This document shows positions 1 through 11,799 of a stretch of DNA of 11,799 nt, piece after piece (the first letter of the stretch is position 1; each line of letters opens with the position of its first letter). The notes beneath the pieces were generated by a model. That model had not been told where the DNA came from and ran no database searches. It worked only from the letters and a program-made list of their open reading frames with translations. The position numbers were made by a program, and so were the translations under genes. This DNA comes from a virus (lineage: Duplodnaviria > Heunggongvirae > Uroviricota > Caudoviricetes), in IMG/VR virus record IMGVR_UViG_2562617151_000001, positions 1-11,799 of that record; one strand, 5' to 3'.

Positions 1-1254
1 ATGCTGGAACAAATGGGCATTGCCGCGAAGCAAGCCTCGTATAAATTAGCGCAACTCTCCAGCCGCGAAAAAAATCGCGTGCTGGAAAAAATCGCCGATG
101 AACTGGAAGCACAAAGCGAAATCATCCTCAACGCTAACGCCCAGGATGTTGCTGACGCGCGAGCCAATGGCCTTAGCGAAGCGATGCTTGACCGTCTGGC
201 ACTGACGCCCGCACGGCTGAAAGGCATTGCCGACGATGTACGTCAGGTGTGCAACCTCGCCGATCCGGTGGGGCAGGTAATCGATGGCGGCGTACTGGAC
301 AGCGGCCTGCGTCTTGAGCGTCGTCGCGTACCGCTGGGGGTTATTGGCGTGATTTATGAAGCGCGCCCGAACGTGACGGTTGATGTCGCTTCGCTGTGCC
401 TGAAAACCGGTAATGCGGTGATCCTGCGCGGTGGCAAAGAAACGTGTCGCACTAACGCTGCAACGGTGGCGGTGATTCAGGACGCCCTGAAATCCTGCGG
501 CTTACCGGCGGGTGCCGTGCAGGCGATTGATAATCCTGACCGTGCGCTGGTCAGTGAAATGCTGCGTATGGATAAATACATCGACATGCTGATCCCGCGT
601 GGTGGCGCTGGTTTGCATAAACTGTGCCGTGAACAGTCGACAATCCCGGTGATCACAGGTGGTATAGGCGTATGCCATATTTACGTTGATGAAAGTGTAG
701 AGATCGCTGAAGCATTAAAAGTGATCGTCAACGCGAAAACTCAGCGTCCGAGCACATGTAATACGGTTGAAACGTTGCTGGTGAATAAAAACATCGCCGA
801 TAGCTTCCTGCCCGCATTAAGCAAACAAATGGCGGAAAGCGGCGTGACATTACACGCAGATGCAGCTGCACTGGCGCAGTTGCAGGCAGGCCCTGCGAAG
901 GTGGTTGCTGTTAAAGCCGAAGAGTATGACGATGAGTTTCTGTCATTAGATTTGAACGTCAAAATCGTCAGCGATCTTGACGATGCCATCGCCCATATTC
1001 GTGAACACGGCACACAACACTCCGATGCGATCCTGACCCGCGATATGCGCAACGCCCAGCGTTTTGTTAACGAAGTGGATTCGTCCGCTGTTTACGTTAA
1101 CGCCTCTACGCGTTTTACCGACGGCGGCCAGTTTGGTCTGGGTGCGGAAGTGGCGGTAAGCACACAAAAACTCCACGCGCGTGGCCCAATGGGGCTGGAA
1201 GCACTGACCACTTACAAGTGGATCGGCATTGGTGATTACACCATTCGTGCGTAA
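1..1254 (+). CDS. proA: gamma-glutamyl phosphate reductase (glutamate-5-semialdehyde dehydrogenase), complete, 417 aa
   Basis: ORF 1..1254 translates to [30 protein letters not shown]...[13 protein letters not shown], which I recognise as E. coli ProA at full length (aldehyde dehydrogenase fold). Its position immediately upstream of thrW matches the K-12 arrangement proA-thrW. Confidence 0.96.
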
Positions 1255-1368
1255 ATAAAACCGGGTGATGCAAAAGTAGCCATTTGATTCACAAGGCCAT
1301 TGACGCATCGCCCGGTTAGTTTTAACCTTGTCCACCGTGATTCACGTTCGTGAACATGTCCTTTCAGG

Positions 1369-1444
1369 GCCGATATAGCTCAGTTGGTAGAGCAGCGCAT
1401 TCGTAATGCGAAGGTCGTAGGTTCGACTCCTATTATCGGCACCA
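1369..1444 (+). tRNA. thrW: tRNA-Thr, anticodon CGU
   Basis: 76-nt sequence GCCGATATAGCTCAGTTGGTAGAGCAGCGCATTCGTAATGCGAAGGTCGTAGGTTCGACTCCTATTATCGGCACCA read directly: 7-bp acceptor stem GCCGATA/TATCGGC, D-loop AGTTGGTAG, anticodon loop TTCGTAA (anticodon CGT), T-arm GGTTCGACTCC, encoded CCA. thrW is the known integration target of P22-family integrases. Confidence 0.95.
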
Positions 1445-1458
1445 TTTAAATCAATAAG

Positions 1459-2622
1459 TTACACATCATTAGTACCTTCCTTATTTTTTGACTGGGACAA
1501 ATTTGGGACCGATGGGTTCAGGATCGAGTCTATTTGCCGTGCGTGTTCGGTAAGGTGATTAGGTGCGAGGTGAGCATATCGACGAACCATTTCGATAGAC
1601 TCCCAGCCTCCCATTTCCTGTAACACTGACAACGGGACACCGGCTTGAACCAGCCAACTTGCCCAGGTGTGTCTCAAGTCATGAAATCTGAAATCATCAA
1701 TACCAGCTCGTCTCAGCGCCGCTTTCCAGGCTGTGTTTGCGTCATATCGCATCTTCCTGACTGTTGGCGCTTTCGTTCCGTCTGGTTTGGTACAGCTTTC
1801 CTTGTACACAAATACCCAATGGTGATGATTCCCGATTTGTTTTTTCAATACGCGACATGCAGTATCATTCAGCGCAACGCCAATTGCGCGGTTTGATTTA
1901 CTCTCTTCCGGGTTTATCCATGCCACCCGGCGCTGCATATCTATTTGTTGCCATTCAAGGTTGATGATGTTCGAGCGTCTTAAGCCTGTTGCCAGTGCAA
2001 ATTCAACAACAGACTTTAATGGCTCCGGACATTCATCAATCAGCCTTTGTGCTTCATGAGGCTCCAGCCAGCGGATCCGTTTATTCTTTGGTTGAGGCAC
2101 TTTAATAATTGGTGCCTTATCCAGCATTTTCCATTCACGCTCTGCGGCTCTTAGTAGGGCCTTTATAAATGAAAGATGCGTAGCCTTCGTTGCAACGGAC
2201 GCTGGTTTTGGCGTGTATTCTGGAACAGGTTTCCCTTTTTTTCTGCATGCTTCTGCCCTGAGTTTCCAGTTTTCCTCATGACGCCGGTTCGTCATTTTCT
2301 GCATTGCTGAATAAATTTTTGATTCAGTAATGTCTCTTAGTTGCATTCCTGCGAAATGTTGAAGCCAGAATCCGATCCGGCTTTTGTCATCGTCCAGTGA
2401 TTTTTTATGTGCTTTCTCTTCAAGCCACCTGACACACGCTTCCTCGAACGTTATATCAGGTATTTCACCAAGTTTGCTGACCCGCCATGCTTCAGCCTTT
2501 AGCTTGTCATGGAGTTCTGTCGCCTGCCTTTTGTCCTTTGTTCCAAGAGACTGTTTAAATCTTTTACCGTTCGGCAATGTGAAACTGGCGTACCATATTT
2601 CACCTCTGCGGAAGAGTGACAT
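1459..2622 (-). CDS. int: phage integrase, tyrosine recombinase, P22 Int-like, 387 aa
   Basis: ORF translation [47 protein letters not shown]...[39 protein letters not shown] matches my recollection of P22 integrase almost end to end, including the C-terminal R..H..R..Y catalytic region. It is adjacent to the tRNA target; stop TAA at 1461-1459. Confidence 0.95.
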
Positions 2623-2849
2623 TTTCTTTCCTCTGTTATGCCATCACCCGCGCTCACCTGGACAGTATGCAGCGGAGACTGAAGAGCCGCAATGCAGGCT
2701 TGTCGTGTTGTGAGGTAAGGAGATTTATTCTTAGTGGGATCTTTGCGTGTTGCCTGAAGACGCCCTGTGCGTATCCAGTTAATGGCAGTCGGTCTGGATA
2801 TCTTGAGAAAATGACAGGCCTCATCGAGTGTGAGGCTGTATGGCTCCAT
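2499..2849 (-). CDS. xis: excisionase (P22 Xis-like), 116 aa
   Basis: The internal ATG at 2849-2847 gives [57 protein letters not shown]..., a P22-type Xis with a helix-turn-helix. The 28 codons upstream in the track ORF look like a read-through artefact. The ATG overlaps the stop of the upstream gene as TAATG. The 3' end overlaps int by 124 nt in another frame. Confidence 0.8.
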
Positions 2850-3154
2850 TATTTCACCTCTTGCTGTGACATTGTTGAAAAATGGATACCAGCTCGTTGC
2901 TGCCAGACGATCCAACCGAGAGTCATATCCCATGCCATGTATTCGTTATCGCCGTTTTTTGCTCTCCGACGATCTACTAAGTCACCGAAACGCTTTTCCA
3001 TGAATAATTCATAAGCTTCGCGTTCATCTGGTTCTACTTCCAGAGATCGGAGTGCGATTTCATAAGCACGGCGCTCAATATCGTCTCGCACGTCAAGGCT
3101 GCTGATACGCTCTTTAATTTCTTTAATCAGTTCTTTGTCGGTAAAAGTGGTCAT
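2849..3154 (-). CDS. YfdT-like prophage early-left protein, 101 aa, function unknown
   Basis: ORF MTTFTDKELIKEIKERISSLDVRDDIERRAYEIALRSLE...; its position and length fit the CPS-53 yfdT slot (from memory). Start ATG 3154-3152 overlaps the stop of the upstream gene as TAATG; its own stop overlaps the xis start. Confidence 0.7.
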   Translation of the reverse strand: MTTFTDKELIKEIKERISSLDVRDDIERRAYEIALRSLEVEPDEREAYELFMEKRFGDLVDRRRAKNGDNEYMAWDMTLGWIVWQQRAGIHFSTMSQQEVK

Positions 3155-3516
3155 TATGCTCCAGCCTCCGGTGCTTTTGGCATTACTGCCCAGTGAGTGA
3201 TATTGACGTTTTCAAGGTCCCCGACCTGAAATGTCCACTGCCATTCTCCGGTTTCTTTTTGTCCCCAGGTGTACCAGAGAGAACGCCAGCCAATTAGCCA
3301 GCCTTCTCCGTTAGCATCGAATAACAAAACACTTTCATTTGCTGGTGGCAGTTCAGTTGACACTGGTATTACTTTGTTTTCCTGTGCTGCACATTTAGCT
3401 TCAAGCGCATCGAATTTACGCACCAGGTATTCAGCATCTGTTTCATTTACTTTCAGATCTCGCGGTACACATCTCCCACGAAGAAACCCTTCCATTTCGA
3501 AAACATTCATGCGCAT
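3154..3516 (-). CDS. YfdS-like prophage early-left protein, 120 aa, function unknown
   Basis: ORF MRMNVFEMEGFLRGRCVPRDLKVNETDAEYLVRKFDALEAK...THWAVMPKAPEAGA. Coupled to neighbours: the upstream gene's TGA (3509-3507) overlaps ATG codon 3 of this ORF, and its stop overlaps the downstream start. Confidence 0.7.
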   Translation of the reverse strand: MRMNVFEMEGFLRGRCVPRDLKVNETDAEYLVRKFDALEAKCAAQENKVIPVSTELPPANESVLLFDANGEGWLIGWRSLWYTWGQKETGEWQWTFQVGDLENVNITHWAVMPKAPEAGA

Positions 3517-4043
3517 TTGCGTAACTCCGATAACTCGTTAAAGCGTTCCATAAACATCCCGTAGGCATGGCCCGGTGCCAGTGGAATCACGTTGAACATC
3601 TCTGTTGCCGGGATACCTTCCAGTACAGGCCAGAAAGAGCCATCATCAAGCCCGAGATCGCGGCGTTCGGTTGCCAGCATGATGAGATCGGCATATTTCA
3701 CGGGCGTACTCATAACTGGGGGTAACCCGTATTTCTCACGGATTACGGCGTCTATTTTTTCTTCCATTTGTTTATAGTCAGGAAGAAGGCGTTTCAGTGG
3801 TGCGGGAATGTCCTGACAATACGCTTCTGTTGCATCATGCATTAACGCTTCGAAAGCAAACTCCTGCGGTACCAGCTGGCTGCAAAGCACCGCATGTTGG
3901 GCGACGCTGTAGAAGTGTGAAAGATGCCCTGCAAAGCGACAGATATTTGAGAGGGAAACTGCGATATCGTTAATCACGATGTCGTCTTTATTTATCCTGT
4001 CATAATAAAAATGCTTCCCGGAAAAAGTTTTAATAAATGACAT
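3507..4043 (-). CDS. HD-domain phosphohydrolase, YfdR-like (putative 5'-nucleotidase), 178 aa
   Basis: Start chosen at MSFIKTFSGKHFYY (ATG 4043-4041), preceded by GGAG about 8 nt upstream; the track ORF starts 9 codons earlier without an SD. HD signature visible: ...HLSHFYSVAQHAVL...EALMHDATEAY.... The length matches my recollection of K-12 YfdR. Confidence 0.8.
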   Translation of the reverse strand: MSFIKTFSGKHFYYDRINKDDIVINDIAVSLSNICRFAGHLSHFYSVAQHAVLCSQLVPQEFAFEALMHDATEAYCQDIPAPLKRLLPDYKQMEEKIDAVIREKYGLPPVMSTPVKYADLIMLATERRDLGLDDGSFWPVLEGIPATEMFNVIPLAPGHAYGMFMERFNELSELRKCA

Positions 4044-4170
4044 TTTGTTCTCCACGTATATGCGCTGCACCGCGCTGAATTCTGGTAAAAGGAAGCCCTC
4101 ACCATCCGGTGATTATTGAGTTAATTACGTTTCCATAAATGCCCCCGCAGGGGCATTTGCAGTAATGAAA

Positions 4171-4995
4171 TCAGGCGGTGAAAGTACCAATAAAGGTTTC
4201 GACTTTGCTGTCTTTGAATTTCTCAACAAGCAGATCACGAAATTCGTTAGCCATTTCTTCCTGCACTGCTTCCAGCTGAATAATGCGCAGAACCAGTACA
4301 GGGCGATCACCAGTGATAATGCTGAGTCGTAATTTAAATGGACGTTCTTTCAGGCCTTCAAACGGAACGCATTTAAATTCAAATGCCACTGGCATAATGT
4401 CTTTGGTCTTCGCTTCGACAGACTCCATCAGGGAGCGTTTGCCGCTGAAGTCATTGTCTTCAAAATCAGCAGTCTGGTTCGCTTCAATTGTGATTTTACG
4501 GACTGCCGCAGCCGCTTTTGTTGCCTGAATGGCGTCACCATTAGCATCAAAGCCCACAAGGTAGTCGGCCCAGTCTTCAATCCATTCTGCCAGTGACTTC
4601 TGGGAGTTACGCTCGCCGTTAACAGACAACAGAGCAGAGAACGGTGCTGTCTTTTTCAGTTTGAGAGTGGCGGTGTTATCTGCGTGACCTGGTTCATCAA
4701 TAGTACCCAGGTTAAGCACACTGACGGCACGCATATTATCAGCATCGATAAAGCAGCGGGTGCCTTCATCTGCAAGATCTTTAGAATAACGGGTAAAGTC
4801 ATCGATGCTGGCAGTGGAAAGCGCACCACGGAAACGGAAGCGATTTAAATTAAATTTTTCCAGATCATGAATGCGGAAATTCTCAGGCAATGCCACAGCA
4901 TCGGCACCAATCTTACTGATAATTTCATTAACACCCTGAGCAGAAATAAGGGCATGGATTTGATTAATTGCGGTTGCGTCTAAGTTCTGAGACAT
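4171..4995 (-). CDS. YfdQ-like protein (I recall this as the DUF2303 family), 274 aa
   Basis: [60 protein letters not shown]...; SD GAGGA about 6 nt upstream of ATG 4995-4993. The order yfdP-Q-R-S-T-like is the same as in CPS-53. Confidence 0.8.
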
Positions 4996-5060
4996 AATAA
5001 GTCCTCACTATATAAAGATATTCAGTGATGAGATAAATAATCAGTTAATTAAAAACGATA

Positions 5061-5423
5061 TTAACGACCTGCTGCGCGGAGTTTTCCGTCAGGTTCACCG
5101 GCAAGAGTCAGTAACTGTCCCTGGTCTTCCTGCAGAATAGTCAGGCGACCACCGCGATTGACATACATCGGCGTTTCGGTGGTGTCTTCTTCGGAAATTT
5201 TCCCGCGGTTAGTCGGGCGAACATATGAGAGTTTGTGTTTGATTTTCACACGGTTCTCATCAAATGGTTCGATTTCCAGGTTGAGTGAGACCTTACCTTT
5301 GGTTTTCGTGTTCATCACACCGGAAGCGACTTCACTGAGAACTGCGCCGATTTTGGTTTCAAATACGCCGCCGTCCAGCTCCCCGATAAATGCATGCACA
5401 TCAGTACTGCGTTCGCTAGCCAT
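5061..5423 (-). CDS. YfdP-like prophage protein, 120 aa; the track ORF is N-terminally over-extended
   Basis: Start placed at MASERSTDVHAFIGELDGGVFETKIGAVLSEV (ATG 5423-5421) because GAGGAG lies about 8 nt upstream. The 106 codons upstream in the track ORF are R/C/P-rich low-complexity translation of GC-rich non-coding DNA. Confidence 0.65.
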   Translation of the reverse strand: MASERSTDVHAFIGELDGGVFETKIGAVLSEVASGVMNTKTKGKVSLNLEIEPFDENRVKIKHKLSYVRPTNRGKISEEDTTETPMYVNRGGRLTILQEDQGQLLTLAGEPDGKLRAAGR

Positions 5424-5439
5424 TTTGCTGCTCCTCATC

Positions 5440-5760
5440 ATATCGACCCTGCAAGGCCGATTAGTTTCTCCACAAAACAGAGAAGAACACCTGCGGTGGC
5501 AGCCGCCCGGATGGATTGGGTTATGAGCCCGTCGTCCGGTGATGCTCTTCTCTGTTTTGTAAAAAGGACGGTACCAGCCGGAAGCAAGGGTACAAACTGG
5601 TACCGCCGGGACTACACACAGCATAAAGTTGTGGTGCCGGGTGCCTCCCGGTGCCTGGCGAAGGTTGCACACCAGACGGGTGGGTATCCACAGAAGGTCG
5701 ACTGTCAGCCTCAACCTTAACCCGCGTGCGCTGAGCCGCATTCACCACAACGCTAAGAAT
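5440..5760. other. GC-rich structured non-coding block; candidate structured RNA or relic of a foreign element
   Basis: No credible ORF in any frame (all translations are R/P/C-rich). Contains a perfect 15-bp inverted repeat (5472-5486 with 5546-5560), a 9-bp stem (5569-5577 with 5597-5605) and long-range 9-nt complementarity (5628-5636 with 5743-5751). Visibly more GC-rich than the flanking phage DNA. Confidence 0.3.
5472..5560. repeat. perfect 15-bp inverted repeat ACAAAACAGAGAAGA / TCTTCTCTGTTTTGT separated by a 59-nt GC-rich spacer
   Basis: Read directly: arm 5472-5486 is the exact reverse complement of 5546-5560; 2 further complementary bases lie inside after one mismatch. Confidence 0.85.
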
Positions 5761-5824
5761 TCTCTCTGGTTGAAAATACTTAGCTGTTATGTGCCTGCTT
5801 TTAGCCACATCAGGCGAGGTGGAC

Positions 5825-5876
5825 CTGGTTATTCCCCAACAACAAGGATTCGGTTAATCTGGTTATCCCCAACAAC
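5825..5876 (+). repeat. tandem direct repeat CTGGTTAT(T)CCCCAACAAC x2, 34-bp period, immediately upstream of the 144-aa ORF
   Basis: Copy 1 at 5825-5843 and copy 2 at 5859-5876 differ by one extra T; a partial CTGGTT copy lies at 5766-5771. Copy 2 ends 5 nt before the AAGGA SD of the ORF starting at 5892. Confidence 0.8.
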
Positions 5877-5891
5877 GCAAAAGGAAAAGAA

Positions 5892-6326
5892 ATGTCCGGT
5901 AATATCTATACGCTGTACAAATCCCACTGTGAAAATGTTGGAAAGTATCGGGGCATTGAAATCAGTGGGGTAGTGTCATCAGTCGAAATAAGCAAAGTTG
6001 AATCAAGGGCAACATTACTTACTCTTCTGGACCTTGTCTTACATGAGCACCGGAAGAAATTCGGCACTCCCTATAATCAGTTGAATGGGAAAAAAGCTCT
6101 GGTTCACCTTATTCTGATGAAGCATCACTGGATGCCAAAACAGATTAATGAGATGAAATTTGATGAACTTCTTCTTTCAATTCAGGATGAATTCACGCTT
6201 GATAAAATAAGCGTAACCGCCCAGAAATTTTTAGATTATCGAGACTGGAGATCACAAATTCATCACTTTGATGATTTTGACGAAAATGAATGGGATCCTA
6301 ATTTGTCTGCACAATATCTAAAGTAA
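5892..6326 (+). CDS. hypothetical protein, 144 aa, no recognisable family; moron-like, opposite strand to the early-left operon
   Basis: ATG 5892 preceded by AAGGA with a 6-nt spacer; stop TAA 6324-6326. Protein MSGNIYTLYKSHCENVGKYRGIEISGVVSSVEISKVESRATLLTLLDLVLHEHRKKFGTPYNQ... has protein-like composition (K/E/D/H-rich, ordinary hydrophobic content). AT-rich codon usage contrasts with the neighbouring GC-rich block. Confidence 0.7.
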   Translation: MSGNIYTLYKSHCENVGKYRGIEISGVVSSVEISKVESRATLLTLLDLVLHEHRKKFGTPYNQLNGKKALVHLILMKHHWMPKQINEMKFDELLLSIQDEFTLDKISVTAQKFLDYRDWRSQIHHFDDFDENEWDPNLSAQYLK

Positions 6327-6504
6327 CATCCTGTGATAAAACCGTGATTTCCTGATCCAGTTTTTTTAAGGAGTCTATTGTTTCCTGTCGATAAGACAGC
6401 ACTTCACGAAGCTGGTTTATAGCTGCCAGCTTCTTTGCCATCCACTCGTAAATTTCCTCATTTGTGTATCCGGGCGCGACGATTTTGGGTTCTGTTTTGT
6501 GCAT
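6298..6504 (-). CDS. hypothetical small protein, 68 aa; first gene downstream of the putative P_L (the position of N)
   Basis: Start at MHKTEPKIVAPGYTNEEIYEWMAKKLAAINQLREVL... (ATG 6504-6502), preceded by a strong SD GAGGAGG about 7 nt upstream; the track ORF begins 5 codons earlier. The 3' end overlaps the 144-aa ORF by 29 nt (convergent). Confidence 0.6.
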   Translation of the reverse strand: MHKTEPKIVAPGYTNEEIYEWMAKKLAAINQLREVLSYRQETIDSLKKLDQEITVLSQDVTLDIVQTN

Positions 6505-6562
6505 TTCACACCTCCTCAAGTTATCAGTTACTTGTTGATGGGGACCAGATTGTTAAAGAGCT

Positions 6563-6590
6563 AAGCGTCCTGTAGGGCGCTTTTTTGTTG
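6563..6590 (+). terminator. intrinsic (rho-independent) terminator-like hairpin plus T-tract
   Basis: AAGCGTCC-TGTA-GGGCGCTT stem (8 bp including one G-U) followed by TTTTTT at 6581-6586. On the minus strand the stem is preceded by an A-tract and followed by a U-poor sequence, so it is mainly plus-strand and at most weakly bidirectional. Confidence 0.55.
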
Positions 6591-6669
6591 CTAACGAATC
6601 ACCCTAGACTTTATATGCCCCAGGCGGCTACTTCGTGGGCGTCCTGCCTGTTCGTTATCTTTGATATAA

Positions 6670-6740
6670 AATCTAACTTAACTTAGTTATTATGGCAAGA
6701 GAAAACACCAAACTTTTCTTAGTTCGGTGCCTTAGTTAGA
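6670..6740 (-). promoter_or_regulatory. putative O_L / P_L region (leftward early promoter with repressor operators)
   Basis: Heptamer CTTAGTT occurs at 6682, 6718 and 6731, the same motif as in the cI-cro intergenic region. Minus-strand candidate promoter: -35 TTGCCA (complement of 6693-6698), 17-nt spacer containing AACTTAGTT, -10 TAGATT (complement of 6670-6675). Confidence 0.4.
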
Positions 6741-6751
6741 GAAGAGAGGTC

Positions 6752-7378
6752 TTAGAGTTCGTATTGAACTCCTTTGACTACACCAATGATAAGGCAATTA
6801 CCATTGATAGGGATGTTGGGATACCGAGGATTTAATGGCACTAAAAACTTTTGAGGGCCATCGATGACTAATTTTTTTACTGTAGCTTCGTTTGTTCCAT
6901 CAAGTCGAGCGATGACTATTTTTCCATGACGAGGTTCTGCATCTGGATCTACAATCACTGTTGCGCCTTCTGGTATTGTTGGGAGGCCATTAGGGTTAGT
7001 CATGGAGTCACCTTTAACCTCTAATGCAAATGAGTTATCACCAATCTTTAATGATGTATCTACCCACTTGTCCACTTCACTAAACACTTCTGCTGCCCTG
7101 CACTCAGTAAACTGCCCAGCCTGAACCCACGATATTACAGGAACTCTGCGCATGTTTGTGACGAGTTTGCCTTCAAACTCAGCACCATAAAGAATGTAAT
7201 CTATTGACGTATTGAAGAACTTCGCTAATTTCGAAAGTGCCTCCCCACCAGGGGTATTGATGTCTTTCTCCCAGTACCCCACAGCAACGTCGCTTACTCC
7301 ACAAAATTTACCCAATTCTTTCTGGGACGTTCCGGTAACTCTTCTCAGAGCTTTTATACGCTGACCAACCGTTTCCAT
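6752..7378 (-). CDS. cI: prophage repressor, CI / P22 C2-like (N-terminal HTH plus C-terminal S24 LexA-like autopeptidase domain), 208 aa
   Basis: ORF METVGQRIKALRRVTGTSQKELGKFCGVSDVAVGYWEKD... (HTH) ... ISWVQAGQF...LEVKGDSMTNP...ATVIVDPDAEPRHGKIVIARLDG.EATVKKL...GNCLIIGVV. Ser-Lys dyad context and overall architecture match the lambda CI / P22 C2 class. Divergent from cro. Confidence 0.92.
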   Translation of the reverse strand: METVGQRIKALRRVTGTSQKELGKFCGVSDVAVGYWEKDINTPGGEALSKLAKFFNTSIDYILYGAEFEGKLVTNMRRVPVISWVQAGQFTECRAAEVFSEVDKWVDTSLKIGDNSFALEVKGDSMTNPNGLPTIPEGATVIVDPDAEPRHGKIVIARLDGTNEATVKKLVIDGPQKFLVPLNPRYPNIPINGNCLIIGVVKGVQYEL

Positions 7379-7396
7379 AGGAGCACCATTTCTTGA

Positions 7397-7468
7397 ATTG
7401 CTAAGTAATCTTAGTTTTTATTGACCAAAGATAGATTTGTAATTAGCATCTAATAAAACTTAGTTTGG
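7397..7468 (+). promoter_or_regulatory. putative O_R / P_R region between cI and cro
   Basis: Near-palindrome CTAAGTAATCTTAG at 7401-7414; CTTAGTT at 7410 and 7459; 9-mer AACTTAGTT at 7457-7465 is identical to 6680-6688. Candidate P_R: -35 TTGACC 7421-7426, 17-nt spacer, -10 TAGCAT 7444-7449, then SD GGAGG 7467-7471 and cro ATG 7476. Confidence 0.45.
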
Positions 7469-7475
7469 AGGGCGT

Positions 7476-7676
7476 ATGACAACTGACGATATCGAAAGCT
7501 ACTTCGGCAGTATTGAGAAAGTTGCTGCTTTTTTCGGCATAACAACTGAAGCCGTTTATCAGTGGCGAAACCGTCCGGGCCAGTTAATTCCAAAAGGACG
7601 TGCAGCAGAAGCTGCATATAGAACTTGCGGACGGTTGCCATTTAAACCTGAGCTTTATGAAAAATCTAATGGATAA
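7476..7676 (+). CDS. cro: Cro-like transcriptional regulator (Cro / YdaS-type HTH), 66 aa
   Basis: [69 protein letters not shown]; a small HTH protein divergently transcribed from the repressor, with an SD in front. Confidence 0.85.
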   Translation: MTTDDIESYFGSIEKVAAFFGITTEAVYQWRNRPGQLIPKGRAAEAAYRTCGRLPFKPELYEKSNG

Positions 7677-8265
7677 ATCGATTAACAGAAACCACAGAAC
7701 GATGAGGCTAACCGTGGGTAAGCATCACTGGAAAGTAGAAAAACAGCCTGAGTGGTACGTGAAAGCTGTCAGAAAAACTATCGCAGCGTTGCCGGGTGGT
7801 TACGCTGAAGCAGCTGACTGGCTGGATGTAACAGAGAACGCATTATTTAACCGCCTTCGTGCCGATGGCGATCAGATTTTCCCGCTGGGATGGGCAATGA
7901 TTTTGCAACGTGCTGGTGGAACTCACTTCATTGCTGACGCTGTGGCGCAGTCTGCAAATGGCGTCTTTGTGTCTCTTCCTGATGTCGAGGATGTGGACAA
8001 CGCCGATATCAACCAACGCCTGCTGGAGGTCATTGAACAGATCGGCAGTTATTCAAAACAGATTCGTTCAGCAATTGAAGACGGTGTAGTGGAACCGCAT
8101 GAGAAGACAGCAATTAACGACGAGCTGTACCTCTCAATTTCGAAGCTGCAGGAGCATGCAGCACTGGTCTACAAAATTTTTTGCATTTCAGAAAGTAATG
8201 ACGCCCGCGAGTGTGCAGCTCCGGGCGCCGTGGCGTGTCGTGACTGTGGAGAAACTAACGCATGA
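7657..8265 (+). CDS. CII-like phage regulatory protein (YdaT / CP76-type); start uncertain
   Basis: ORF ...[73 protein letters not shown]...; lies directly after cro as in lambdoid layouts. Candidate starts are ATG 7657 and ATG 7669 (the latter 5 nt upstream of the cro stop); the track's 7600 start is a GTG only 1 nt after an SD-like AAAGGA and is unlikely. Confidence 0.65.
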
Positions 8266-8440
8266 ACAGTTTAACAACACACTACCGTCGCTCGCAACTG
8301 ATTGCGCTTCCTGTACCGGGTGGAAAAGCGAAGGTGGAGTATTGCTATGCAGTAAATGTACCAGGTGGCAGGGTAATTGTAACCCACAGCTTTGCAGAGT
8401 GGGCTGTGGGTGATTTTAACCGGCAAAAGGAGACAGTCCT

Positions 8441-8620
8441 TTGCGACAAGTTAACCGCTGGTTCAAAGATCACTACGGAGTACCCGTCAGAGTCATTCGT
8501 TGGGAGCCGGAAACACAACGGGTTATCTACCTCCGCGAAGGCTATGAGCATGAATGCTTCAGTCCGCTCGAACAGTTTCGTCGTAAATTCAGGGAAATAG
8601 AGGTCGGTCATGAGCACTAA
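8441..8620 (+). CDS. possible small protein (59 aa) with TTG start; alternative to the ATG-initiated 112-aa ORF 8262..8600
   Basis: AAGGAG sits 8 nt upstream of TTG 8441. The frame gives [59 protein letters not shown], a protein-like composition, ending at TAA 8618-8620 (overlapping the initiator start by 11 nt). It is absent from the ATG/GTG-based track. Confidence 0.35.
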
Positions 8621-9581
8621 ATTAACCGGCTATGTATGGGATGGTTGCGCTGCGTCAGGCATGAAATTATCCAGCGTGGCAATTATGGCCCGCCTGGCTG
8701 ATTTCAGTAATGACGAAGGTGTGTGCTGGCCATCAATTGAAACCATTGCCCGTCAGATTGGCGCGGGGATGAGTACCGTCAGAACGGCTATCGCACGGCT
8801 GGAAGCAGAAGGCTGGTTAACGCGTAAGGCGCGTCGCCAGGGTAACCGCAATGCGTCGAATGTTTATCAGCTTAACGTTGCGAAGCTTCAGGCAGCGGCA
8901 TTTTCTCAATTGTCAGATTCTGACCCGTCAAAATCTGACGCATCAAAATCTGACCCGTCAAAATCTGACGCATCAAAATCTGACCCGTCAAAATTTGATG
9001 CGTCGAAATCTGGCAAAAAAGCGGGTTTTCACCCGTCAGAATCTGGCGGGGATCCGTCAGTAAAATCAAAACATGATCCGTCAGATAAAAAAACTTCTCG
9101 TCCGGACGCTTCGCAACCGGACACGCAGACGGCTGAACAGGAGTTTTTAACTCGCCATCCTGATGCGGTTGTATTCAGCCCTAAAAAGCGCCAGTGGGGA
9201 ACGCAGGATGATTTGACCTGCGCACAGTGGCTCTGGAAAAAAATCATCGCCCTGTACGAGCAGGCCGCCGAATGTGACGGCGAGGTGGTTCGTCCCAAAG
9301 AACCGAACTGGACAGCCTGGGCAAACGAAATTCGCCTGATGTGTGTGCAGGATGGTCGTACTCACAAACAAATCTGCGAGATGTACAGCCGCGTCAGCCG
9401 CGATCCGTTCTGGTGCCGTAACGTGCTCAGCCCGTCGAAGCTGCGGGAAAAATGGGATGAGCTTTCCCTGCGCTTATCGCCGTCCGTCAGCACGTACACA
9501 GAAAAACGCGAAGACCCGTACTTCAAAGCCAGTTACGACAACGTGGACTACAGCCAGATCCCGGCAGGATTCAGGGGGTGA
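8610..9581 (+). CDS. phage replication initiation protein (lambda O-like role; N-terminal HTH, internal iteron-encoded linker), 323 aa
   Basis: N-terminus [70 protein letters not shown] is a typical helix-turn-helix replication-protein domain. The internal SDPSKSDASKSDPSKSDASK stretch is encoded by a 15-bp iteron array, the lambdoid ori-within-initiator arrangement. SD AGAGG precedes ATG 8610. Confidence 0.85.
   Translation: MSTKLTGYVWDGCAASGMKLSSVAIMARLADFSNDEGVCWPSIETIARQIGAGMSTVRTAIARLEAEGWLTRKARRQGNRNASNVYQLNVAKLQAAAFSQLSDSDPSKSDASKSDPSKSDASKSDPSKFDASKSGKKAGFHPSESGGDPSVKSKHDPSDKKTSRPDASQPDTQTAEQEFLTRHPDAVVFSPKKRQWGTQDDLTCAQWLWKKIIALYEQAAECDGEVVRPKEPNWTAWANEIRLMCVQDGRTHKQICEMYSRVSRDPFWCRNVLSPSKLREKWDELSLRLSPSVSTYTEKREDPYFKASYDNVDYSQIPAGFRG
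8919..9008. repeat. iteron array: six tandem 15-bp units alternating TCTGACCCGTCAAAA / TCTGACGCATCAAAA; probable prophage origin of replication
   Basis: Units at 8919, 8934, 8949, 8964, 8979 and 8994 (the last degenerate), with degenerate copies flanking (8911-8918, 9009-9023) and GATCCGTCAG repeated at 9051 and 9075, followed by an A-rich stretch at 9084-9095. Located inside the initiator CDS. Confidence 0.85.
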
Positions 9582-9583
9582 TC

Positions 9584-10072
9584 ATGAGTCTTTTGAATGA
9601 AGTTCAGAAATACATTGAAGCCCATCCGGGGTGTACTTCCGGAGACATTGCGGATGCTTTTGCAGGTTACTCACGGCAGCGCGTTCTGCAGTCAGCAAGC
9701 AAGTTACGTCAGAGTGGGCGTGTGGCTCACCGTTGTGAAGGGGATACACGCAGACATTTCCCGCGCCTGACTGAGAGAGCGCAGGAGGCGGAACCGCAAC
9801 CAGTTCGTGAAACCAGACCTGTGCGCAATTTCTATGTCGGCACTAACGACCCGCGGGAGATTTTGTGCCTGACCCGCCAGGCTGAAGAACTGGAGTCCAG
9901 GGGCTTATACCGTCGTGCTGCAACGGTGTGGATGGCGGCATTCCGTGAAAGCCACTCCCAGCCAGAACGAAACAATTTTCTGGCGCGTCGTGAGCAGTGT
10001 TTACGGAAAAGCAGCAAGCGCGCTGTATCGAGTGATGAGTGGTATCTGTCAGGGAATTACGTGGGGGCGTAA
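9584..10072 (+). CDS. PerC-family (Pch-like) regulator domain protein with an N-terminal winged-helix-like region, 162 aa
   Basis: C-terminal LTRQAEELESRGLYRRAATVWMAAFRESHSQPERNNFLARREQCLRK matches the PerC/Pch signature (LE..GLWRRAA..W ... RR..C). ATG 9584 is preceded by GGGGG; the GTG 9578 in the track is less likely. The stop overlaps the next start as TAATG. Confidence 0.6.
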   Translation: MSLLNEVQKYIEAHPGCTSGDIADAFAGYSRQRVLQSASKLRQSGRVAHRCEGDTRRHFPRLTERAQEAEPQPVRETRPVRNFYVGTNDPREILCLTRQAEELESRGLYRRAATVWMAAFRESHSQPERNNFLARREQCLRKSSKRAVSSDEWYLSGNYVGA

Positions 10073-10398
10073 TGACGACGTTAACTCAATGCCAGCAGCA
10101 GGTGCTGGATATGCTGATTTCTTATCAGAAAGAGCGTGGCTTTCCGCCAACCAATCAGGAGGTGGCAACCATGCTGGGATACCGTTCAGTGAATGCAGCG
10201 GTAGAGCATCTTCGCGCACTGGAGAAAAAAGGCGTCATCACGATAAAGCGTGGCGTGGCCCGGGGGATAACGCTTCATACCGCGGTGAAGGACGACGACA
10301 GCGAGGCGGTCGGGATTATCCGCGCACTGCTTGCCGGTGAGGAAAACGCAAGGTTGCGTGCAACCCACTGGTTACATGAGAGGGGCCTGAAAGTATGA
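10072..10398 (+). CDS. LexA N-terminal DNA-binding-domain protein without the S24 peptidase domain, 108 aa
   Basis: MTTLTQCQQQVLDMLISYQKERGFPPTNQEVATMLGYRSVNAAVEHLRALEKKGVITIKRGVARGITL aligns by eye with the LexA DNA-binding domain (LexA: ...[55 protein letters not shown]...). No Ser/Lys peptidase domain follows. Confidence 0.7.
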   Translation: MTTLTQCQQQVLDMLISYQKERGFPPTNQEVATMLGYRSVNAAVEHLRALEKKGVITIKRGVARGITLHTAVKDDDSEAVGIIRALLAGEENARLRATHWLHERGLKV

Positions 10399-10784
10399 AG
10401 CTGATCCTGCCTTTTCCGCCCAGCGTGAACACGTACTGGCGACACCCCAACAAAGGGGCGTTTGCAGGTAAGAGCCTGATAAGCGCGGCGGGGCGCAAAT
10501 TCCAGAGCGCGGCGTGTGCAGCAATAGTTGAGCAGTTACGTCGTCTGCCAAAACCAACGTCGGCACCTGCTTCAGTGGAGATCGTGTTGTTTCCTCCGGA
10601 TAACCGGATCCGCGATCTGGACAACTATAACAAGGCGCTGTTTGACGCCCTGACCCACGCGGGTGTGTGGGAAGACGACAGCCAGGTGAAAAGAATGCTG
10701 GTGGAGTGGGGACCGGTTATCCCGGAAGGGAAGGTCGAGATCACTATCAGTAAGTACGAGAAAACGGCGGGTGCAGCCGCCTGA
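10395..10784 (+). CDS. rusA: Holliday-junction resolvase RusA (crossover junction endodeoxyribonuclease), 129 aa
   Basis: MKLILPFPPSVNTYWRH...DNRIRDLDNYNKALFDALTHAGVWEDDSQV... follows the RusA pattern (PP..N.YYRH ... RRDLDN..K...DALT.AG.W.DD.QV). ATGA overlap with the upstream stop; typical nin-region gene. Confidence 0.88.
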   Translation: MKLILPFPPSVNTYWRHPNKGAFAGKSLISAAGRKFQSAACAAIVEQLRRLPKPTSAPASVEIVLFPPDNRIRDLDNYNKALFDALTHAGVWEDDSQVKRMLVEWGPVIPEGKVEITISKYEKTAGAAA

Positions 10785-10803
10785 TCAAGAGGAGAAACGA
10801 AGT

Positions 10804-11247
10804 ATGAATAATCTGATGGTCATTGATGGTATTGAAGTTCGTCGTGATGCTTATGGGCGTTACAGCCTGAACGATCTGCATCGCGCAGCAGTAGCATCTG
10901 GTGCAAATGCCAGAACCAAGGAGCCGGGAAAGTTTCTTTCCAGCCAACAAACTGTTGAGCTTGTTCATGAATTGACCAACACCCAGAATTTGGGTGTTGA
11001 CCCGGTGAGTGTGATTCATGGGGGAAATGAACGGGGAACTTATGTCTGCAAGGAACTGGTGTATGCCTATGCAATGTGGATCAGCCCGTCATTCCATCTG
11101 AAGGTGATCCGTACTTTCGACATGGTAACCAGCGCACCGGAAAAATTATCCGGACAGGCTGCTGACAAGATGCAGGCTGGTGTGATTCTGCTGGACTTTA
11201 TGCGTCGGGAGTTACCCGAACCGCGACAAGCCCTATATCCGGAGTAA
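10804..11247 (+). CDS. KilA-N domain protein, 147 aa
   Basis: Start at MNNLMVIDGIEVRRDAYGRYSLNDLHRAA (ATG 10804, SD AAGAGGAG 9 nt upstream); the GTG 10771 in the track is unlikely. ...GTYVCKELVYAYAMWISPSFHLKVIRTF fits the conserved KilA-N C-terminal block. Confidence 0.7.
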   Translation: MNNLMVIDGIEVRRDAYGRYSLNDLHRAAVASGANARTKEPGKFLSSQQTVELVHELTNTQNLGVDPVSVIHGGNERGTYVCKELVYAYAMWISPSFHLKVIRTFDMVTSAPEKLSGQAADKMQAGVILLDFMRRELPEPRQALYPE

Positions 11248-11250
11248 TCC

Positions 11251-11799
11251 ATGCATCGTATAGACACGAAAACCGCGCAGAAGGATAAGTTCGGCGCGGG
11301 TAAGAACGGTTTTACCCGTGGTAACCCCCAGACAGGCACGCCTGCCACCGATCTGGATGATGACTACTTTGACATGTTGCAGGAGGAGCTTTGCAGCGTG
11401 GTGGAGGCATCCGGTGCCAGCCTAGAGAAGGGGCGGCACGACCAGTTGCTTACCGCGCTTCGTGCGCTGCTGTTAAGCCGCAAGAATCCGTTTGGCGATA
11501 TCAAATCGGACGGCACGGTGAAAACGGCTCTCGAAAACCTTGGTTTGGGAGAAGCGGCGAAAAGGGATGTGGGCACAGGAGATAATCAGATACCGGATAT
11601 GGGAGCATTCGCTTCTGGTTCGGGATGGTTCAGGCTACCAGGTGGATATATTGTTCAGTTTGGCACTTTTTCAGGAAACACGACCCGCTTTATCAGTGGA
11701 CACTTCCCTATACCATTCCCTAATCAGCCGATGGTTTCAGTCAGTGTTATGTCTGATGCCGTTCAGTCAGACCCGTCGAATCCTCGCCCCGCAGGTTTT
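11251..11799 (+). CDS. tail-fibre-like protein, N-terminal 183 codons; 3' end beyond the window
   Basis: ATG 11251 with GGAG 7 nt upstream; open to the window end (absent from the track because there is no stop). Translation [74 protein letters not shown]...[21 protein letters not shown] resembles phage tail-fibre proteins by recollection; the family assignment is tentative. Confidence 0.5.

Follow-up and report, generated by a model that had tools for sequence, protein, structure and literature searches.

How does a lambdoid prophage bring a helicase to its origin when no loader gene follows its initiator gene? The question is raised by a stretch of 11,799 nucleotides (positions 1 to 11,799 of the IMG/VR virus record IMGVR_UViG_2562617151_000001, here called the window), which corresponds to the left arm of a lambdoid prophage that has tRNA-Thr(CGU), beside proA, as its integration site. 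Its replication initiator gene encodes a protein of 323 amino acids (aa) and contains the phage origin, and an earlier note, made from the sequence alone, had observed that no P-, DnaC- or DnaB-like gene follows it, the next genes being PerC-like and LexA-DBD-like. Pfam and six-frame phmmer searches bear this out: lambda P, E. coli DnaC, a phage DnaC-like protein and the DnaB-like gp12 of P22 have no match anywhere in the window, and judged by the families that they match, neither the PerC-like nor the LexA-DBD-like gene is a helicase loader. The earlier note left the choice between an initiator that recruits the host helicase by itself and a replication module that is incomplete. We think, with a probability of roughly 60%, that 8610-9581 is a complete and self-contained origin and initiator module of the SfIV/SfII/CPS-53 type, and that its DnaT-like tail recruits host DnaB-DnaC. 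The first suggestion was thereby right in direction but too vague, as the evidence points to a DnaT-like peptide and to host DnaC-DnaB as its likely target.

An intact module without a loader gene

The replication module is not degraded, since the viable phage SfIV has a matching arrangement and no loader or helicase was found in its genome. SfIV is induced by ultraviolet light, forms plaques, has been propagated and lysogenises (PMC3851460). The window initiator is 97% identical to its gp41, and the order initiator, PerC-like gene, LexA-DBD-like gene is found at 96-98% DNA identity in SfIV, SfII, Kati and others, which have essentially the module of the window. The 54-gene genome of SfIV has no annotated helicase, primase or loader, and a six-frame search of it with lambda P, DnaC, YdaV and P22 gp12 gave no match; on these two grounds a loader encoded elsewhere in the phage was rejected for SfIV. 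Compared with SfIV the window has two more iterons (323 against 313 aa), and it differs from SfII, SfV and Kati in lacking the dam gene that is present there. In SfV and mEp460 the tail and the downstream genes are as in the window but the body of the initiator is another. The earlier note had tied degradation to a featureless C-terminal half and a loader gene in intact relatives; what we find is a C-terminal half with recruitment-type features, and close intact relatives that are loader-less.

The arrangement is a common one. Homologues of the initiator number more than 2300, and a search of 5426 complete E. coli genomes found a match to the gene in 2725. Some Shiga toxin (Stx) phages have the tail and the downstream genes in common with the window initiator, and annotations name such proteins 'replication protein O' or 'primosomal protein (I)'. 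In two E. coli chromosomes (L091 and L092) a C-terminal initiator fragment of 122 aa, made up of core and GFRG tail, is followed by the PerC-like yfdN; this fragment presumably corresponds to the defective 'yfdO' of CPS-53 in K-12. The module of the window belongs to the HTH_36-type 'Eru' kind, and a survey of such replication regions in Stx phages stated their mode of replication to be unknown (PMC8951638).

The tail of the initiator and its partner gene

The initiator ends in the peptide ASYDNVDYSQIPAGFRG. Its last nine residues, SQIPAGFRG, agree at eight of nine positions with SQIPPGFRG, residues 171-179 of E. coli DnaT, so that SQIP(P/A)GFRG is common to both proteins, and other phage initiators match the DnaT tail at 14 of 20 residues. 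DnaT is an adaptor thought to bring DnaB-DnaC to DNA; the host dnaT gene lies directly upstream of dnaC, and essentially all tails of DnaT orthologues that were read keep the motif ..PD..IP.GFRG, with a conservation that covers 20 residues. Across 54 distinct tail DNAs Gly is encoded by each of its four codons, Phe by both and Arg by each of its six, and because every synonymous codon is used, the peptide itself is under selection. The motif is moreover kept where it is not terminal (GFRGAK, GFRGATS, GFRGHE) and where the next gene is 40-190 base pairs (bp) away. A mere ribosome-binding site was rejected as a sufficient explanation of the conservation, in view of the codon diversity and the non-terminal variants.

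Across about 280 related loci the type of tail predicts the partner gene. We listed the C-termini of all related initiators, and clustered and annotated the genes immediately downstream; the counts that follow are of 67 clusters at 90% identity. Initiators with a ..DWIYG.. tail, as in lambda O, are followed by a Phage_lambda_P gene in all four clusters and those with a WNS..WE..L tail in all five, and the P gene then begins after a gap of a few bases at most or with a short overlap. Behind a ..[IV]PxGFR[GST] tail P was found in none of 42 clusters and behind a WxxIW tail in none of 14 (exact test of P against other tails, ~3e-11 from the cluster counts). Only one of the 42 GFRG-tail clusters has a DnaC-like gene (L162, where the DnaC homologue follows the initiator, 9e-83), and a solo organisation is the rule in the other 41. 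The suggestion of an incomplete module is contradicted by these counts and by viable SfIV, with the same gene order and no loader found.

The tail travels with the partner gene, as two Pantoea initiators (P0059 and P0082) have the N-terminal domain, iterons and core of the window but a DWIYG tail and a P gene. Where GFRG-tail initiators precede a loader gene at all, it is a close DnaC homologue, as in Gifsy-1 and in the Rac prophage, where the tail of YdaU (..SLPDSAIPPGFRG) is followed by YdaV, the order being that of host dnaT-dnaC; the same pairing is found in Shigella phage 75/02 (Stx) and the Klebsiella phages ST974phi18.2 and Kp4882-1. When viral contigs were scanned without bias for IPPGFRG followed by a stop codon, 120 matches were obtained, every one in frame at the end of an open reading frame (ORF). 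Most of these ORFs are of ~275-408 aa and resemble initiator-type or DnaT reference sequences, and about 105 of the 120 have a YdaV/DnaC-like gene ~6 bp downstream, P in none. DnaC-like loaders that are only 31-40% identical to E. coli DnaC go with other tails, even in E. coli phages, which favours the loader, and not DnaB, as the partner of the tail. Since the GFRG tail is paired with E. coli-type DnaC wherever the phage encodes a loader, recruitment in the window probably goes by way of host DnaC-DnaB rather than naked DnaB.

Other tails were seen as well. A second loader-less class, ..(R/K)xW(N/A)xIW(K/Q)..Q..AA, sits on O-like and SfV-like C-terminal bodies and has neither P nor DnaC nearby in any of its 14 clusters; its loci are L101-L109, L138, L144-L146, L153 and L163-L167 (Providencia, Proteus, Buttiauxella, Yersinia, Rahnella) and phage YeP3 (L005). 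Modules of Morganella, Aeromonas and Serratia have the variant tails ..IPEDF, ..PPGFN and ..IPEGFN... At 3501-5133 of locus L154, from an uncultured Serratia, the initiator tail has an internal IPEGFN and an acidic end resembling that of SSB (..GGTDDDFI), with a DnaC-like gene next, and may be a tail with two motifs.

Iterons and a conserved core inside the initiator gene

The earlier note accurately placed 15-bp iterons with degenerate flanking copies inside the coding sequence of the initiator. Tandem Repeats Finder reports, at 8919-9012, a period of 15 with 6.3 copies (83% matches) or of 30 with 3.1 copies (93%). Set in its natural register, the unit proves to be an imperfect palindrome of 13 bp, GTCAAAATCTGAC (consensus RTCARAWTYTGRY), which recurs at 15-bp intervals starting at 8912; six consecutive copies match the consensus on both strands (8912, 8927, 8942, 8957, 8972 and 8987), a seventh at 9002-9014 is degenerate (GTCGAAATCTGGC) and an eighth stands alone at 9035-9047. 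All 13 strand-matches to the consensus fall within 8912-9047, with none elsewhere in the window, and shuffled sequence gave 0.07 matches in the mean, none of 200 shuffles reaching 13. The array codes for SDSDPSKSDASKSDPSKSDASKSDPSKFDASKSG, the SD(P/A)SK stretch that had already been recognised as a low-complexity linker, and AlphaFold2 predicts it as a disordered linker (residues 103-170) between a winged-helix N-terminal and a helical C-terminal domain. Near-identical relatives differ by steps of 15 bp, giving proteins of 303, 308, 313, 318 and 323 aa, which means that iterons are gained and lost singly.

For comparison of origins we used 159 related loci from viral and genome collections, and in every initiator a tandem array lies directly 3' of the region that codes for the N-terminal domain. 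N-terminal domains of the type ..GAGxSTVRTAI.. go with the 15-bp unit TCAAAATCTGAC, irrespective of the C-terminal domain and in genera from Escherichia to Yersinia, Providencia and Rahnella, those of the type ..ARSKTTVSAAI.. with a different 15-bp unit, CCCCTCAATTATTGA, and the SfV-type and rep_O-type domains with units of 21-24 bp. The sequence and period of the iterons consequently co-vary with the type of N-terminal domain, and the C-terminal domain and the tail vary independently of the array. This comparative evidence, the changes in copy number and the conserved core described below indicate that the repeats behave as iterons and that the region is an origin. No origin is annotated in the record stretches of the four phages examined (SfIV, SfV, phiNP and YeP3).

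Beyond the array the two 24-bp repeats of the conserved origin core (Table 1) form an A-rich tract, which the earlier note had also seen and which is real: the GC content at 9060-9099 is 0.30, the lowest in the initiator gene. In an alignment of 14 loci from different genera 9026-9100 is near-invariant at the nucleotide level while the flanking coding sequence diverges, and the encoded segment is predicted by AlphaFold2 to be disordered, with a predicted local distance difference test score (pLDDT) below 50. The conservation of the DNA across 14 genera, the divergence of the flanks and the predicted disorder of the peptide together argue for a cis-acting DNA element, and we regard it as a candidate region for unwinding or for a host factor. 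DnaA boxes, which could have given a route by way of the host initiator, were rejected, as none lies within 8254-11074.

GATC (Dam) sites head the 24-bp direct repeat, GATCCGTCAG(T/A)AAA.., at 9052-9099, and each is kept in 13 of 14 genera. In SfII, SfV, Kati, YeP3 and phiNP a dam or other methylase gene comes directly after the initiator or PerC gene, which is not so in the window and SfIV. The conserved sites, and the methylase genes at this place in many relatives, suggest a methylation-sensitive control of the origin. Between the iteron array and the core there is also a terminator-like hairpin on the minus strand, CGGGTGAAAACCCG followed by a T run (9022-9035); its left arm is unconserved in the alignment of 14 loci, and as a functional element it was set aside as probably fortuitous.

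The initiator is a mosaic relative of lambda O

The N-terminal domain models as a winged-helix fold (AlphaFold2, mean pLDDT ~64-88 per block of 10 residues), and the subtype of its recognition helix co-varies with the iteron sequence, from which we infer that it binds the iterons. It is not the N-terminal domain of O: Phage_rep_O (PF04492) matches lambda O at 5.7e-36 and the window initiator not at all, HTH_36 being found instead, and the protein is for this reason a mosaic relative of O and not its orthologue. Over residues ~176-290 the C-terminal core is a homologue of the C-terminal domain of lambda O; residues 70-287 align by BLASTP with residues 78-270 of lambda O (6e-26, 30% identity over 220 aligned columns), and the relationship to lambda and 933W is also seen by tblastn. 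This core is modelled with pLDDT > 90, is present in 2659 representative clusters and has a fold that recurs in other phage replication proteins. The C-terminal half matches no Pfam or NCBIfam family, and a word-indexed search for its homologues returned mainly fragments. The lambdoid arrangement of the origin, which the earlier note had proposed, is upheld by the iterons in the linker-coding part, the homology of the core with the C-terminal domain of O and the co-variation of iterons and N-terminal domain.

DnaT and the Rep proteins of iteron plasmids do not account for the protein. The DNA-binding domain of DnaT (PF17948, the three-helix bundle of residues 84-153) has no match in the initiator at E <= 0.01, and full-length DnaT has none in the window by phmmer at 1e-4. 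RP-C (E 0.0049) is below the cut-off, and Rep_3, the family of iteron-plasmid Rep proteins, gave no match; features of the latter are lacking as well, the iterons here being intragenic and without a DnaA box near them. For DnaD_N, the winged-helix domain of the DnaD-type replisome organisers of Firmicutes and their phages, there was a match at E 0.0014, below the cut-off. A sequence search against solved structures yielded only weak matches to MarR-type winged helices.

How the helicase could be recruited

We propose that the HTH_36 winged-helix domain binds the 13-bp palindromic iterons in its own gene, probably as dimers, as the co-variation suggests. By analogy with lambda ori, the iteron complex would strain the adjacent A-rich core at 9026-9100, with its two GATC sites, until it opens. 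The lambda-O-like core and the disordered tail would hold the function of helicase delivery, for which the lambda-type relatives have a DWIYG or WNS..WE tail and a P gene. In the window the place of that tail is taken by SQIPAGFRG, the peptide of host DnaT, which is paired with E. coli-type DnaC loaders in phages and host alike. By displaying it the initiator would recruit host DnaB-DnaC to the opened origin, and that is why the phage, as we see it, would need no loader gene of its own. For the wider claim, that [IV]-P-x-G-F-R-G acts as a portable motif on which E. coli-type DnaC or DnaB6-DnaC6 docks, and that phages have copied it and DnaT uses it as its handover element, we would give even odds.

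Several points weigh against the proposal. The DnaT similarity of the window protein spans 9 residues only (pairwise E 0.009), and the counts behind the association of tail and partner gene are not phylogenetically independent. Part of the tail conservation could be translational: a Shine-Dalgarno-like AGGGGG lies across the GFRG codons, which also run into the start of the next gene. The existence of the loader-less WxxIW class means that a solo initiator does not by itself need a DnaT-like tail. The unwinding element of the origin is a putative one, the iteron spacing of 15 bp does not amount to a whole number of helical turns, and the searchable literature holds no binding or replication experiment on this initiator family. 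In a study of the preprimosome it is furthermore the N-terminal domain of DnaT, and not its tail, that is proposed as a possible recruiter of DnaB/DnaC (PMC13377028).

Another explanation is that the tail connects the initiator with the PriA-PriB preprimosome, or with another partner of DnaT, and DnaB-DnaC arrives as in replication restart; the initiator would open the origin, PriA and PriB would assemble on the bubble and the phage protein would replace DnaT. DnaT is the only characterised carrier of the tail and works together with PriA and PriB, its C-terminal domain docking on PriA and its linker on PriB (PMC13377028), no direct DnaT-DnaC interaction is documented (PMC11087952), and annotation pipelines call the phage proteins primosomal. 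Yet tail-bearing phages very often have a DnaC homologue as the next gene and in no case encode homologues of PriA or PriB, and the tail changes when the loader is P or of a distant DnaC subfamily though the E. coli host, and hence its PriA and PriB, stays the same. The contacts of DnaT seen by cryo-electron microscopy (cryo-EM) are made by the 84-153 bundle and the acidic linker and not by residues 154-179, which the passages available do not describe; the C-terminal domain in these structures of 2026 was modelled by fitting an earlier 84-153 crystal structure, and the mechanism of DnaB/DnaC recruitment is called unknown (PMC13377028). It is just this bundle that the window protein lacks, and we consider the explanation improbable.

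DnaB could also be recruited in some other way, by the O-like core directly or with help from DnaA or transcription, the tail then serving translational coupling, proteolytic control or oligomerisation. Plasmid iteron initiators do bind DnaB directly, the WxxIW class is likewise loader-less, and the tail codons overlap not only the Shine-Dalgarno-like AGGGGG but also the GTGA/ATGA start-stop overlap of the next gene. Against this stand the lack of DnaA boxes within 8254-11074, the use of six codons for Arg and four for Gly, which speaks of a constraint on the protein, the persistence of the motif away from the terminus or from the next gene, and the strict association of each tail type with a loader type, which would be left unexplained; there is in our view little chance that this is the answer. 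That the module is a degraded one, its loader lost and its repeats mere slippage-prone low-complexity coding sequence, is very improbable indeed, for although the window lies in a chromosomal prophage, a truncated 122-aa copy of the CPS-53 type exists and the repeat number varies, the ORF is intact and close to that of viable SfIV, in whose genome no loader was found, the initiators of 41 independent clusters as a rule stand alone, and the repeats are palindromic, co-vary with the N-terminal domain and are flanked by a core conserved at the DNA level.

Comparison with known replication systems

One of the known systems closest to the module is ori-O-P of lambda, where the origin likewise lies inside the initiator gene in a segment that codes for a flexible linker, an A/T-rich tract comes after palindromic iterons and the C-terminal core domain is homologous. 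The C-terminal domain of lambda O is assigned to P binding, and its last five residues are essential, Oam29, which makes 294 of the 299 residues, being a null mutation (PMC6022878). The differences are a Phage_rep_O instead of an HTH_36 N-terminal domain, four iterons of 18-19 bp in lambda against 7-8 copies of 13 bp at 15-bp spacing in the window, a P gene that the window lacks, and the tail, ..DWIYGVDL in lambda (DLTNTDWIYGVDL) and the DnaT-like ..IPAGFRG in the window. From DnaT itself the window protein differs in having neither its N-terminal domain, its acidic linker nor its ssDNA-binding (single-stranded DNA-binding) three-helix bundle, and DnaT is targeted to forks by PriA/PriB, whereas the window protein would be targeted to iterons by its own winged-helix domain.

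The modules of Rac (YdaU-YdaV), Gifsy-1 (O-DnaC) and phage 75/02 ('primosomal protein I'-DnaC) also have an initiator-type protein that ends in ..PD..IP.GFRG, and they too come next to Cro/CII-like genes, on their downstream side, at this position of the early-right operon. Unlike the window they have a DnaC homologue of their own directly downstream, and their N-terminal domains are others (DUF1376 in YdaU, a Phage_rep_O-like domain in Gifsy-1 and another family in 75/02). In Cellvibrionales and Oceanospirillales, DopC-DopE includes a lambda-O-descended gene whose product combines HTH_36 with a DnaT-related C-terminal sequence (PMC5509034). The window initiator resembles DopC in these two parts, but DopC has a DnaT_C domain, no iterons and a P-like neighbour gene, is chromosomal and is not an origin (PMC5509034), and the window protein has an O-like C-terminal core with only the terminal peptide DnaT-like. 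A literature search for 'initiator-solo' gave no match. Solo-initiator modules of phages are said to have been classified by Weigel and Seitz (FEMS Microbiol Rev 2006).

Gene order and other features of the window

Table 1. Features of the window and of the initiator gene, with positions in the 11,799-nucleotide stretch.
Feature	Position	Strand	Remarks
proA	1-1254
tRNA-Thr(CGU)	1369-1444
Integrase	1459-2622	minus
Cro-like gene	7476-7676		Early-right operon
CII/CP76-like gene	7600-8265		Early-right operon
Small ORFs, including DUF4222 gene	8441-8620 (DUF4222 gene)		Upstream of initiator, early-right operon
Replication initiator gene, 323 aa, phage origin inside	8610-9581	+	phrog_391 'replication initiation O-like', 1.9e-135
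N-terminal winged-helix domain	8610-8915	+	Residues 1-102; putatively iteron-binding; Pfam HTH_36, 4.4e-11
Iteron array	8912-9014	none	Seven 13-bp imperfect palindromes, 15-bp spacing, seventh degenerate
Conserved origin core	9026-9100	none	Last iteron 9035-9047 and two GATC-headed 24-bp repeats, 9052-9075 and 9076-9099
C-terminal helical core	9123-9482	+	Residues 172-291; homologous to lambda O C-terminal domain
Disordered C-terminal tail	9483-9578	+	Residues 292-323, ending SQIPAGFRG (9552-9578); putative docking peptide for DnaC-type loaders
PerC-like gene	9584-10072	+	Pfam PF06069, 7e-10; PHROG 'transcriptional activator'
LexA-DBD-like gene	10069-10398	+	Pfam PF01726, 3e-19; PHROG 'repressor'
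RusA	10395-10784		Downstream of LexA-DBD-like gene
KilA-N gene	from 10771		Downstream of RusA

A GTG at 9578, a candidate start of the PerC-like gene, overlaps the stop codon of the initiator. As a hidden partner or loader the PerC-like gene was rejected; after many GFRG-tail initiators its place is taken by Dam, cytosine methylases, DUF977 or KilA-N, and pairing with PerC is therefore not obligatory.

Upstream of the initiator, two ORFs overlap in different frames at 8262-8620. The one of 112 aa (8262-8600) is the version in phage records (phrog_1170), of which phrog_20047 matches the first 63 residues only, whereas RefSeq/PGAP annotation of E. coli genomes has the DUF4222 ORF of 59 aa (8441-8620, Pfam 8.6e-19); of the 112-aa call, the 3' half is likely to be spurious. 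At the other end the KilA-N ORF (10771-11247) has 158 aa against ~265-300 aa in relatives of its downstream cluster, there is no long ORF between it and the end of the window, and it may be truncated or rearranged. Further to the left, at 5466-5871, the plus strand has within 400 bp a cluster of four DnaA-box-like 9-mers, each with one mismatch to TTATCCACA, partly inside the ORF at 5061-5741 and partly upstream of it; the window as a whole has nine such sites against 2.4 expected.

Implications for phage replication

Part of the picture was already known: the arrangement is common, the HTH_36 replication regions of Stx phages have been catalogued (PMC8951638), and an HTH_36 and DnaT_C protein beside a P-like gene has been described (PMC5509034). 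To this the analysis adds a map of the origin with its iterons, conserved core and GATC sites, a simple explanation for the missing loader and a rule that links a short C-terminal peptide to the type of loader. We found no report of such a map, of a rule connecting tail type and loader type or of a DnaT tail as the explanation of loader-less phages, nor any paper linking the C-terminal peptide of DnaT to phage initiators or to DnaC.

The initiator gene is carried by about half of the complete E. coli genomes and by the Shigella serotype-converting phages too, and the comparison of phages nominates 7-20 residues of DnaT as a candidate for the recruitment of DnaB-DnaC, which can be tested at the level of the peptide. 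If the wider claim is true, the GFRG peptide would be the element through which host DnaT passes the complex of helicase and loader on to the preprimosome, and temperate phages would have copied the peptide to at least five initiators with unrelated bodies. Where a phage has dropped its dnaC-like gene, as this prophage, SfIV, SfII and SfV would have done, it would then replicate by mimicry of DnaT, and the tails would make up an exchangeable 'loader code' in which DWIYG and WNS stand for P, GFRG stands for DnaC and further tails stand for further loaders.

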